From Lingula anatina (lineage: Eukaryota; Animalia; Brachiopoda), in NCBI GenBank assembly GCA_051362555.1, contig CM120643.1:28276848-28340847 (forward strand): a stretch of DNA of 64,000 bases. Reading direction: 5' to 3'. Position 1 is the first letter of the stretch; each line of letters begins with the position of its first letter. Under the pieces are notes generated by a model. That model was not told the origin of the DNA. It searched no databases and saw only the letters and a list, made by a program, of their open reading frames with translations. This document shows, in pieces, positions 3,801 to 9,800 of the stretch. The position numbers were made by a program, and so were the translations under genes.

Positions 3801-6800
3801 GACAGTTTAGAAATTGAAAATTGCAACATATGTATATAATGTTCTGTAATAACCCTTTGTTATTTTGGTGCTTTGACACTTAAAAGACAAAACAAAAAAA
3901 AGTTGTAAATGTAATGAGCACGGAATTTCGAACACATACTAGACATTAAAAAAAAACATTAAACATTTTGCTACAAGGATTAAATAGTGGGAAGGGGGAA
4001 AGAGATAAAGTCATGTCAACGGTAGGTCTCGAACCCATAGATGCACCAGAACGATTCATGAATTCTTACCTTGTGTGGTCTTGCACGCTAACCACTACAC
4101 GAGCTGAAGTTGCAAACCTCTCATTCTTTGTCTGATATATGGCTCACAAGAAGGATTTCATATACATTTATAGTTTTATCATTTAACAGTATTATTGGCT
4201 AAGGATAGGACTTTCAAATGGCCGGACTTTTATTACTGGCATAGGTGTAACAGGAATAAAAGTCCGACAGTAATACAAGTCCTACCTACTCTAATTATGA
4301 GCCAGGAACCTAAGTCCCTGTAGGACTACTATTCCCAAGTAATGTTAGTCCTACAGACAACCATTACCTGGGGGACTTGGATTACTGTTACACCGGTAAA
4401 AAATGGGCTAAACAGCTCAATGTCACAAAAGGCGAGATCGAGGCCAGTAAGTGCGTGACGTAACAGCGTGGGTGAGACTCAGAAATCTGATATGGTTTCG
4501 ACGTGGAGATCTTTGTCCAGCGATGATAGGAGAACTTAACAATGTTAGTAGAAATTTATATCTGACTATGAATTAGACAGCGACGTAAAAGGAAGTAGAA
4601 GTAGAGGACGAGAGGAAGCAGGTGGTTCGTCCTTTTCAATTGGAGCCATACGCATCAGAGTGGGACGAAGAGGAGGGAGAAGCACAACTTCTGGAATGGT
4701 ACGTAGATATACAGTGTTAGTTATAACCTGTGTTTTGATTAAAGCTTTATGCGTACATTGTTTGTTTTATTAAAATGACCCTCATTTATAGACATGCATT
4801 CGGTTTGATTTACAGCCCAGTATTTAGTAATAACCAATAAAATTGCACACTGAGGTAAAATTCCGCATGTATAAGTGCATACATTTTTATTACAGGTGCA
4901 GTTGCAGGTCATGTAATATAATGCCCTCGGCTTTTGAATGTCTTTTTTATTTTATTTTATTTATTTATTTATTTATTTATTTATTTATTTATTTATTTAT
5001 TGCAATAGAAAAAAAAGCAAAACTTTACAAGCACACAATACTCATTACAATAGCAAAGTCCACAAGGTTTTGACATGTAAAAATACAGTCAACAACTTGT
5101 ATATATGCAACTAAACAAATCCATATATACCTATCCATTTGTGCCATAAAACATTGAATTTTTCTACATCTTGAGATACAATGTATTTTTGCTTATAAAT
5201 TTTGTATATATTTTCTAAATAAAGTTGAAGTTTTGTGAGTGACAGTGCTCTTTCTGACATTTTGTTTTGTATATAAAAAGTCAATGTGTATAGTCAGAAT
5301 TATATTGGATACATTACGTTCATCAATGTCAATTAGAATAAACTGTATATTACTGAACTGAAATTTAAATATATATTACAAGAAATTAACCATGCTTCTA
5401 CTTGGCGTAAGACATTTTGTACAATAATACAATCCCAAAGTATATGGTATATAGTTTCTACCTCCTCGTGACAAAATGTGCACATAGGTGATTGAAATAG
5501 GCCCGTTCTATATACAAAGTTATTTGTGGTGAGGATTCTATAGAATATTCTAAACTGGAACCACAGCATCTTTGTGTCCTTTACTGACACATTGGTTTTC
5601 TTATATATCTTTTCCCAAAAATTATGATCCCGAGGAGTAAAAATATTTGACCATTTTTCCTCAAAAATAGGCTTAGCATTCGAGCTATTTAATATGTCGT
5701 ACATATCTTTCGAGCCCAATAACTCATATACTTTATGGTTGCCACGGACTGTACATTTTGATTTTTCTGTACAGATCATTTATTGTCGCAGTAATACCAT
5801 TGTATTGTAAAAAGTTGATTTTAATATTAGTGAGTTCAGAAAATTCTTTATATGAATATAGTCTACCATTTTTATTAGTAAGATCATTCACTTGTCTATA
5901 TCCTTTATCATACATCTCTTTATGGAACAGCGTCTCTTTATTTACCCTCAGAGAGTTATTGTACCATAATGGGACTTTATTCAACTCGGTCATTTGTTCT
6001 TTTTTAACAATTCACGCCAAGCTAAAAAAAAAAAAAAACATCCTTCCAAAATAAATTATGTGTGCCTGTTTGACAGAAGCGCAAATATTCACAACCACAG
6101 CTTAGCATCAAGTCTAATTTATATCTATGCAAAAGGATATTTTGCCAAATACCCTCCGTATTTATCAACTGTCTCACCCAAGTTAATTTTAATGTCATTA
6201 TTGAAGCTTCTACGTTTATCATATCTAGTCCACCATCTTTTATTTTTTATTATTTATTTATTTATTTTATTTTTTATTTATTTTTTTATTTTTTTTTTTG
6301 CATAATATTTCCCTTTTTACTTTATCCAGCTTACCTTTCCAAAGAGATAGGTTAGGCAGTGAAATAAAAAGATGGTTAAATTTCGATATTAAGAGACTTT
6401 TAATTACTGTAATTCTACCGACTGGGGTCAAAATTAGTCTTTCCCATAGTTTAAGTAATCGTTCAGTACTTTCAATTTTTTCCCGATAATTCCTTTCACA
6501 TATAGTATCTAGTTCAACATAGAATTTAATACCTAATAATTTAAAAGACGTTGCATCCTATATTGAGCTTAAACAAGATGGCCGCTTGTATGAGACAGGC
6601 TTATGAAGCTCTCTGAAGAAGATTCATTTAATCACCGGTGTTTATGTATAAATCTTGGAAAGAGCATCAATAACAGAAATCTAAAGTGACCAAGAAAGAA
6701 TAGAAAACAGAAAGAAAACAGTTATGAGTGGGGAAAAGTGGAATTAGCAAGCTCAGTCAAGGAAATCTGCATAAAGAAACAAAATGGAGGATTACTACTC

Positions 6801-9800
6801 AGTGCTTGGAGTAAGCAAAGGATGTAAGACTGAAGAGATAAAGGATGCTTTCATCACAAAGGTTAGTGAGTTGAATGAAACAAACTCTAAGGACATATTA
6901 CAGACAATCAGTGAAGCTTACTATACTCTAGTTAACCCAGATGACAGAAAGAAATATGACTTAGAACTGGGAATAGCAAGTAAACATGACTATGATTACA
7001 GTGAGCAATATTATGGTCCCAACATTGTAGCTGTCATACACAATGCTCAGTGTGCCACAGTGGGAGTCAGCACCGTGAGTGTAGTGAAAAGAATGTTAGA
7101 GACTTCAAGACTGCACCACAAACCTTCAGTAGATTGCGAAGTAAATTCTGGAACTGGACACCAGCTTAAGTTTCACTACTTCTCACCAAAAGGGATTGAC
7201 CTTGGAAGCATCTCCCTAACTTTTTATCACACAGCAAAGTCAAAGAAAGTTCATGTACAGGGAGCAGCATATGTGGTGTGGTTAGCTCTTGACTACCCAA
7301 AAATTGTCCTACTATCATCAGCACCAAAGCCTGTCCAACCCGGCATGGATGAAACCAGGGTAAAACACAGTGAAGAAAATAACAACACAGAGACCAAGGG
7401 AGACCTTACAGGAGATTGGGATCAAACCACGCCAAAGAGAGTAGCAAAACCAAAAAGAGTCTCACAAGCTACACCAAAGGGTTTTAAAACCAAGACCGGC
7501 CCAAATTTGAAGGAGAAGAAAATAGAAAAAGACATGAGCAAAGTACAGGAAACATTACAAACAGTTGAAAATCAGTACACTCAAATTCTTTTACAAACAT
7601 CAGACCTCAAGAGGCAGGAAACCAAATCTAGTAACAATGACATAAAGGAAATCAAGGAGCAATTATCCCAATTAACTTCTCAGATGCTTAAGCTGACAGA
7701 AGCAGTGGACAATCTACATACCCAGCTGTCCTCTCTAAACAACAAGGGCATTGAAATGGGAATTCAGTGTGATTCTCTAACAGCCACAGATAATAGTACT
7801 CAATGCGAGATAAACATCACTGATAGCTCAACACAGTGTGCAAAACCTTCCTACAGATCAGTGTCAGCCAGCACCAACACAGTTACTGTAAGAACAATGG
7901 CTGTTAACACCTTTACCCCACCGCCTCAAACCAGCACAGGTAGTGCGAACAAAGCAATAATGGAAACAAAGGCTACTAACACCACACTACCACAAACGGA
8001 TGTCAGGAGTAGAAACAATGAGACAGGTGACAATGCTGCAGATCAAATTAGTGAAACTGAAGGCACAGTAACACCAACACATAGAGGTGAAAATGACAGC
8101 GAGCAAATTACCATTGTGAACAACTGCAACCATCTGGAAGCAACATCCCATGAGCAGAAGAATACAAGTGCAATAGAGCCTGGAGTAAGTGAGGATAACC
8201 CCACCACAGAGATACCTACGACAACAGGTACGGGTACTCAGAGGCACACTAGACTACAGGTAAAGGAACCGTGTGAAAATCTGGTAATCTCAGATTCAAT
8301 CGGAAAAGGTCTTGTAAGCCAAAAACTTTTCCCACGCACCCACAGTAAATGTATTGCTCTGAATGGCAAAGTAATAAAGGATGCGCAACAGGTGGTAGAA
8401 GAGAGAGACTTTGGCCAACCAAAATCAATCACGTTTATCATGGGCTCCAACAACGTAAACAGCCACGAACAGCCGAAGGATATCCTGTGCCATATGCAAG
8501 AACTGGTCCTCACCACACGAAGGAAATACAAGGACACCAAAATCATAATCTCAAGTATACTCCCCAGGTGGGACAACTGGGACTTTAACAAAAAGGCGGT
8601 GGTAACAAACAATTGTATTAGTAAATACTGTAACACCCTGGACAATGTGTGCTACATGTGGAATGACAACATAGTCTGCACAAGAAATATGTTCCATAGA
8701 GATGGAATACATCTAAACCAAAAAGGAAATTCAGCACTGGCGTGTAACATTAAGGCCGTAACTGGGCATCCATACTATGCCAGTGCAAACACCCGAAATG
8801 ATACGCAAACTGTCCAACACCTAAAATGGGATCATGGGAGGCACCCAAGCATGCGCCCACAAGGGAATCAAAGGACCCGCCCAAACAACGCACCACCAGT
8901 AAACCTGCGTAGAGACTGTCGTGCACAGGATGCTCCAGCATACAGAAGCCAGGAAAAAGACATCCAAAATGAACTAAGAACTCTGTACGATTCCTTGAAC
9001 AAACTGATAAGCAAACTGGAATAGAGCAAGGGGTTTAGTTATGAAAAATGTATTGCAACTTGAAGCAGTTTGTAAGTACAGATATTATTTACTTGGTACA
9101 TTGATTTAAGTAAAAATGCACTAAAACTTTGAAGATCAAATTAAAACAAGTATACTATCTCAAATAGCATTTTTATGGATACATATTTGCAGGTATGTGT
9201 GTGTATGTATATATGGGTATATATGCGTATATGCGCTTATATATATATGTATATTATCTGCCTTATGATTCTATAGAATTCTTCAAAGGAAGTTTACTCA
9301 GGAAAGAATTTATTGTCAATTAAGAAAGGAAAACATCCTATACAGGATAAAGAATAGTGTTAACATGTATCTTCGTATTCAACTAATTTACGATGCACTT
9401 ACTCAGTAGTTATTTGTACATTTAAATGAAATACTTTTACATGAACACCTGGTGATTAAACGAATCTAAGTAGGAGTACACAAATAGTCAAAACAGTAAA
9501 ATGCTACGTATAGGTATGAGAAATGTAAGAGGACTGTCAAACAAGTTATATGATCATAACTTTATTCAAACAGTGCAAAACTTCGATATATTTGTATGCA
9601 TTGAAACTTTTAGTACAACGAGATCAAAAGTAACCCTGCCCACAAGCACTCACAGCCACTTCTTAAGATTAAGAAAGAAAAGAAAAGTGAAGGGTAGACC
9701 CTCCGGGGGAATTGTAGTATACTACAAAAAGGAACTTAGCAGTGCACTGACATTGTTGAATAGTAAAAGTGAGAATCTGCTGTGGTTGAAGCTATCAGGC

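Follow-up and report, generated by a model that had tools for sequence, protein, structure and literature searches.

Why should the first protein of a retrotransposon begin with the fold of an Hsp70 co-chaperone, and what can that fold do once its His-Pro-Asp (HPD) loop has gone? The question is raised by a long interspersed nuclear element (LINE) in a 64,000-nucleotide stretch of Lingula anatina DNA (assembly GCA_051362555.1, contig CM120643.1, positions 28,276,848 to 28,340,847 of the forward strand), which is referred to here as the window and numbered from its first letter. An earlier note, made from the sequence of the window, had described an intact LINE whose first open reading frame (ORF) encodes a protein (ORF1p) that opens with an HPD-less J-domain, and had proposed that this captured fold serves either as an Hsp70 decoy or as a ribonucleoprotein (RNP) assembly module. 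We find that the J-domain and the alpha/beta domain that follows it constitute a widespread ORF1 module, mostly with HPD intact, of which the window form is a degenerate but conserved J-like variant. Relatives that keep HPD would recruit Hsp70, and the J-domain of the window family would be structural and no longer Hsp70-activating, a reading that we consider rather probable.

The J-domain of the window ORF1p has lost its HPD loop

ORF1 (6784..9024, + strand) encodes 746 residues, and both its extent and the N-terminus quoted in the earlier note proved exact. Residues 3 to 59 (6790..6960, +) match the Pfam DnaJ family (PF00226) over all 63 model positions, scoring 33.8 bits in the full ORF1p (E = 3.6e-8) and 40.7 bits alone (E = 2.6e-10), above the curated cut-off of 27.8 bits. 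The best PDB sequence match of the N-terminus is the J-domain of DNAJB12 (E = 4.5e-6), and the PDB alignments leave a gap of about 5 residues in ORF1p at the position of HPD; as had been claimed, a shorter loop takes its place, the deletion lying near residues 29 to 36 (6868-6891). An AlphaFold2 model of residues 1 to 180, built with 51 aligned sequences (mean predicted local distance difference test score [pLDDT], 84; predicted template modeling score [pTM], 0.78), contains the four J helices (residues 4-8, 16-29, 35-50, and 52-61; pLDDT, 84 to 95), and its J part matches solved J-domains with Z scores of up to 10.1, in line with the original assignment. The fold predicted from the single sequence was poor beyond the J-domain (mean pLDDT, 47.6), and Foldseek returned no match at an E value of ≤0.001 in PDB or viral models.

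Functional co-chaperones carry HPD between helices II and III, and their helix II, the Hsp70-binding face of J-domains, is basic. The window ORF1p has no HPD at this position, and its helix II has a net charge of -1. Prediction of a complex of residues 1 to 180 with Escherichia coli DnaK, ATP, and Mg gave a score of 0.00, which is evidence neither way. In each of the DNA runs from which contigs were compared (4 of 4), one contig spans the J loop without a gap; the deletion is therefore a trait of the family and not of one copy.

The J and alpha/beta domains form a module that mostly keeps HPD

A phmmer search with residues 1 to 180 gave 87 matches, of which 23 covering the alpha/beta part were chosen by eye. 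A word-index search with the same residues yielded none among 694 candidates, whereas the full HMMER scan did find relatives. A profile of the alpha/beta domain only, biased to J-bearing forms because its 16 sequences had all first been found by the J-containing query, retrieved 82 proteins, 60 of them with a precomputed DnaJ annotation. The alpha/beta domain was present in 111 of 318 collected proteins and was preceded by a J-domain in 85 of these; in 25 of the 26 without one it begins within the first 43 residues, as expected for gene calls cut at the 5' end. Capture of the J fold by a LINE ORF1, as the earlier note had it, is thus supported and is wider than was then known.

HPD is kept in 71 of the 85 J-bearing proteins. 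When these are grouped by identity, it is held by 30 of the 35 groups formed at 70%, by 19 of 24 at 60%, and by 6 of 11 at 50%. Over 35 representatives, the H, P, and D columns are conserved at 97, 94, and 89%, respectively, and helix II has a net charge of +1 to +4 in 34, the window element being the only one at -1, so that most relatives have the sequence features of functional co-chaperones (HPD and a basic helix II). The five groups without HPD are the window element (deleted), P0003 (HPE), P0004, P0009 (His-Pro kept), and P0041 (HLD). The statement that the J-domain is HPD-less therefore holds for the window lineage and fails for the module. The relatives nearest in the esterase (P0290, P0291, and P0302; E = 2e-18 to 1e-15) keep HPD, and we infer that its loss in the window family is derived, since cellular J-domains have it. 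Of the 34 inner branches in a tree built from 37 modules, 8 are well supported, and the number of HPD losses cannot be read from this tree.

In full-length relatives, the J-domain and the alpha/beta domain are followed by a PHD-like finger, a coiled coil, and an SGNH esterase. These relatives fall into clusters, in which as many as 35 nearly identical members lie on separate contigs. The PHD-like finger, which lies between the alpha/beta domain and the coiled coil in most relatives, is absent from the window ORF1p. One relative of 1,146 residues (P0026) joins a J-domain with HPD, the alpha/beta domain, a zinc finger, NADAR, and an esterase in one protein; in P0007-type relatives, esterase block I reads mostly Gly-Ser-Ser instead of the usual Gly-Asp-Ser, with Ser and Asp-x-x-His kept. 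P0006, P0074, P0210, P0256, and P0269 are labelled as bacterial CbpA or bacterial reverse transcriptases (RTs) in metagenome records and are probably host DNA in symbiont assemblies. Contigs with loose ends at 6830, 6934, and 6993 point to diverged sister subfamilies of the same organism and seemingly encode J helices; read by eye, they show helices I and III, differing at many silent sites.

The module sits in two distant LINEs

The window element is a full-length two-ORF LINE of 6,677 bp (6565-13241), framed by an identical hexamer on either side (6559..6564 and 13242..13247, +) as a 6-bp target-site duplication. On the plus strand, a 219-bp 5' untranslated region (UTR; 6565..6783), ORF1, a 476-bp spacer (9025..9500), ORF2 (9501..12950), and a 3' UTR (12951..13241) follow one another, the last ending in AATAAA (13218) and a (TTA)n tail. 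ORF2p (1,149 residues) comprises an APE endonuclease and RT, unbroken by Pfam, and a C-terminal Cys/His motif. With an APE-RT ORF2, a 3' simple-repeat tail, a target-site duplication, and multiple copies, the element is an autonomous APE-type LINE.

Copies were compared in contigs from four DNA runs of four studies, and one run, X1, possibly supplied the window itself. At 6563/6564, some contigs depart from the window and continue as the uninterrupted host LINE, like the sequence 3' of the element. Others meet foreign flanks at 6571-6576, so that further full-length insertions exist, with the same 5' end and J-domain. The LINE is intact, as had been stated, and young, and its N-terminus is kept in other copies. 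The insertion site lies in the RT part of an older minus-strand LINE that is broken (about 4900-6564 and 13242-15500), presumably of the L1/Tx1 type by its motifs, other copies of which are without the insertion. From its ORF2 motifs and ORF1 layout we provisionally label the element itself RTEX-like. A match of the RT to the Greenland shark (P0222) led to no clade, and term searches found no RTEX labels in the accessible supplement text of PMC11203168.

A second LINE with the module was found by scanning metagenome loci with the alpha/beta alignment, in which 2 of 36 stretches responded: L001, which is real, and L002, a chance match. Similar scans gave 1 of 12 stretches in prokaryote genomes (L003, 20 residues, taken as chance) and 0 of 34 in viral contigs. 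In L001, an ORF1 consisting of J-domain, alpha/beta domain, esterase, and CCHC (467-2353; P0003) stands directly before an APE-RT ORF2, the motifs of which look CR1/L2-like to us. The CCHC knuckles are C-terminal to the esterase, and the ORF2 frame begins right after the ORF1 stop. In the ESM Atlas, all matches of P0003 were below 0.9 and are leads only. The ORF1s of the window element and L001 align over the J and alpha/beta module (29% over 178 residues, E = 2e-19) and over the esterase. Their RTs are 28% identical, compared with 41 to 51% between the window RT and its best 120 relatives. The module therefore sits in two distant LINEs, which agrees with the exchange of ORF1s between clades reported in the accessible part of PMC4120745. 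The HPD-bearing relatives, too, are probably ORF1s of LINEs, to judge by their architecture and copy number.

The J-domain is tied to a second folded domain

Residues 79 to 179 (7018..7320, +), which the earlier note had seen as an alpha/beta segment and left unexplained, constitute a domain of their own, folded, conserved, and linked to the J-domain. It stands outside the Pfam families, and no sequence match was found in Pfam or PDB. The AlphaFold2 model has strands at residues 81-87 and 90-95, a helix at 97-110, strands at 117-121, 125-133, 139-149, and 154-160, and a helix at 163-179, a predicted TBP-like/KA1-like fold. In a structural comparison with the model of residues 1 to 180, it was matched by the KA1 domain of SAD-B (5iri; Z = 9.0; root mean square deviation [rmsd], 3.3; 92 residues aligned), BamC (2laf; Z = 8.4; rmsd, 2.9; 87 aligned), the N-terminal domain of RNase H3 (3vn5 and 4py5; Z = 7.9; rmsd, 2.0; 68 aligned), and the VCR of METTL16 (6m1u; Z = 7.2; rmsd, 3.1; 90 aligned). 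The pTM of 0.78 for residues 1 to 180 suggests that the J and alpha/beta domains are held in a fixed mutual arrangement. Members of the TBP-like/KA1 fold group bind acidic lipids, RNA, or RNA-DNA hybrids. The modelled domain could supply the folded RNA- or membrane-binding part that esterase ORF1ps were found to lack in PMC3905857, as far as accessible.

The remainder of ORF1p (all on the plus strand) agrees with the earlier description, to which a Lys/Arg-rich stretch at about residues 216 to 249 (7429..7530), a candidate RNA-binding patch, is added. This stretch is followed by a putative coiled coil at about residues 243 to 325 (7510..7758), predicted because several Pfam coiled-coil families match weakly at residues 241 to 325, a Ser/Thr-rich acidic linker (7759..8265; 30% S+T), and an SGNH esterase (8266..8781) with its catalytic blocks intact (S505, G528, N556, D640, and H643). 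The best PDB sequence match of the esterase is that of the ZfL2-1 ORF1p (4c1b; E = 0.0012), and an SGNH domain with Ser, Gly, Asn, and Asp-x-x-His in the first ORF of an APE LINE places the protein among the type IV, or esterase, ORF1ps. Neither an RRM nor a CCHC was found by Pfam in the window ORF1p, of which residues 181 to 494 lie outside the fold prediction.

The N-terminus shows signs of purifying selection

The variant analysis drew on 40 of 61 rows of variants, of which 29 fall in ORF1 codons 1 to 190, most of them from run X10. Nineteen of these 29 are synonymous, versus 21% expected (P = 4e-7), with a ratio of nonsynonymous to synonymous polymorphism (pN/pS) of 0.14. The alpha/beta domain contributes 13 synonymous variants of the 17 listed (P = 6e-6), and the J-domain alone contributes 4 of 7 (P = 0.03). 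Codons 1 to 190 thus show signs of purifying selection. RNA reads on 6300-13500, flanks included, numbered 20, 2, 175, and 34 in four of the nine listed RNA runs (raw reads). The J region was covered in run X18 only, at a depth of about 1, which is too thin to demonstrate a full transcript.

Explanations for the HPD-less form

Because most relatives keep HPD, and because the module of L001 precedes the ORF2 of a distant LINE, recruitment of Hsp70 to the LINE particle is the role for which the module likely evolved. In the window family, HPD and the basic face of helix II are both lost, and its J-domain has therefore most likely ceased both to activate and to hold Hsp70. We envisage that ORF1p would multimerise by its coiled coil and coat the RNA, with the alpha/beta domain, the basic stretch, and the esterase binding RNA or acidic membranes. 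An ancestral or HPD-bearing J-domain may then deliver Hsp70 locally to build or dismantle the ORF1p multimer, as viral J-domains do with complexes of their viruses, and the window lineage, having lost Hsp70 activation, may retain the J fold for its packing with the alpha/beta domain. The earlier proposal of an RNP assembly module stands in this form.

Several points weigh against the interpretation. A single large clade contributes disproportionately to the HPD counts, and 6 of 11 groups at 50% identity implies that decay of HPD is common. DNA context was seen for no HPD-bearing relative, the sole relative with context (P0003 in L001) having HPE. The branch of the window module is very long (4.39), the longest of the family, and its placement is unsure. 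The Z scores of the best alpha/beta fold matches (9.0, 8.4, and 7.9) are near the tool background of 7 to 8, and a common fold shows no function. The selection test comprises 29 variants, mostly from X10, and its result for the J-domain alone is marginal. The alpha/beta domain of the window element is as diverged as its J-domain (mean identity, 0.27 versus 0.26), so that the J-domain is not specially relaxed. Poly(A) reads of the LINE family exist, at very low depth.

A J-domain without any role in the window family, decaying inside an otherwise active element, would account for the loss of HPD, of the basic face, and of the PHD finger, and for the length of the branch. Such a vestige is nevertheless unlikely: the domain still scores above the Pfam cut-off and folds at a pLDDT of 84 to 95, 4 of its 7 listed variants are synonymous, and the loose ends point to J-keeping sister subfamilies in the same organism. 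Next comes the Hsp70 decoy of the earlier note, an HPD-less domain that docks on Hsp70 or host J-proteins without activation and so shields the LINE particle from chaperone-driven disassembly. We disfavour it and hold it to be improbable, although the fold and helices I, III, and IV are kept, there are signs of purifying selection on the J-domain, and HPD variants recur in relatives (HPE, HPV, HP-L/I, and HLD). The HPD loop is deleted and not merely substituted, and the net negative charge of helix II, the sole case among the 35 representatives, removes the face by which Hsp70 would be held; the HPD-less form is more likely structural than a decoy.

Mitochondrial J-like Pam16/Tim16 pairs with the J-protein Pam18/Tim14. 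By analogy, the window domain might pair with HPD-bearing J-domains of sister LINEs or of the host and tune the use of Hsp70. The seeming coexistence of several J-bearing subfamilies in the same organism, and the Tim14-Tim16 entry 2guz among the fold matches (Z = 6.3), would suit such a regulator, but the HPD status of the sister subfamilies is not visible in the contigs and the match to 2guz is no better than those to other J-domains, which makes this a slim prospect. That a host DnaJ fragment was fused to one copy by accident, or that the relatives are nothing more than ordinary DnaJ genes of the host (the surrounding DNA is available for two elements only, and the source annotates two short relatives as bacterial-type CbpA), is largely refuted and very improbable, given the same 5' end and J-domain in other full-length copies, the same module in the distant L001, and relatives that are multicopy and carry a LINE-type esterase and PHD finger.

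Other features of the window

A BEL/Pao long terminal repeat (LTR) retrotransposon (33986-40860, +) has 559-bp LTRs that are 99.5% identical, and its coding region consists of two overlapping ORFs (34551-39086 and 39070-40170), broken before the integrase. A 375-codon stop-free frame (31910-33037, +) has no Pfam match. A repeat of several hundred bases, 73 to 85% alike, is clustered and partly inverted at about 26300-30300, 2500-3200, and 41100-41700.

Implications and comparison with known systems

Taking a structural J-domain in the window family and Hsp70 recruitment by its HPD-bearing relatives together, we see it as an even call whether these elements represent an undescribed class of LINE ORF1p that carries its own Hsp70 co-chaperone module, shuffled between distant clades for RNP assembly or uncoating and HPD-less in some lineages, and that would be the first retrotransposon-encoded J-protein. 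If so, Hsp70 hijacking would extend from viruses to retrotransposons. How ORF1p particles assemble and are released from RNA before reverse transcription is an open question, and a built-in J-domain would tie that step to Hsp70, with the natural HPD-plus and HPD-less versions as built-in controls. The alpha/beta domain would add a candidate RNA- or lipid-binding domain to the esterase-type ORF1ps, which have no known folded RNA-binding domain. Many invertebrate "DnaJ genes" or metagenome CbpA labels may likewise be LINE ORF1s.

Among the papers listed by full-text literature searches, from which Repbase with its Repbase Reports, Dfam, and the majority of subscription journals were excluded, none concerns a J-domain in the ORF1 of a LINE. 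The term DnaJ is absent from the accessible main text of PMC3905857, PMC4120745, PMC12477816, PMC11203168, PMC6338049, PMC5408684, and PMC13343379, and the accessible parts of PMC5753468, PMC3753637, and PMC4441479 hold nothing decisive on J-domain LINEs. A prior database note may exist, since Repbase and Dfam lay outside the search and the RTEX ORF1s in Repbase begin with long stretches that carry no annotation; these N-terminal residues, about 270 to 350 in number, could hide the same module.

The closest known proteins are the type IV ORF1ps of CR1, L2, and RTEX, with the ZfL2-1 ORF1p (4c1a/4c1b) as the model protein, which in the accessible parts of PMC3905857 and PMC4120745 consist of a coiled coil, a poorly conserved linker, and an SGNH esterase, with no RRM. 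The layout of the window ORF1p resembles the RTEX_BF/SK rows in the accessible part of Table S1 of PMC3905857 (coiled coil from residues 266-356, esterase from residues 469-550), a paper that describes esterase ORF1ps as without structural RNA-binding domains and, as far as accessible, does not mention DnaJ. Unlike these proteins, the window ORF1p has a J-domain at its N-terminus, followed by an alpha/beta domain that is also folded. The predicted fold of residues 79 to 179 is like that of TBP-like/KA1 domains (5iri, 2laf, 3vn5, 4py5, 6m1u, and 9j8p of TUT1), at 5 to 18% identity and with Z scores near background.

Virus-encoded J proteins (the T antigens of SV40 and other polyomaviruses, the JDP of Molluscum contagiosum, and Rki of phage RB43), as presented in the accessible part of PMC3486835, are likewise products of selfish elements with an N-terminal type III J-domain for host Hsp70. 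According to the same text, host Hsp70 is put to use by both the T antigen of SV40 and phage Rki, and J function is abolished when the His of HPD is changed to Gln. The present carrier differs in being a non-LTR retrotransposon, known here from its sequence, with the J-domain on an RNA-coating protein and, in the window family, without HPD. In this last respect it is like Pam16/Tim16 and other J-like proteins, which have the J fold without HPD and are unable to stimulate Hsp70. The window domain is set apart from Pam16/Tim16 in that it is encoded by a mobile element, has its loop deleted, and is fused to a LINE ORF1.

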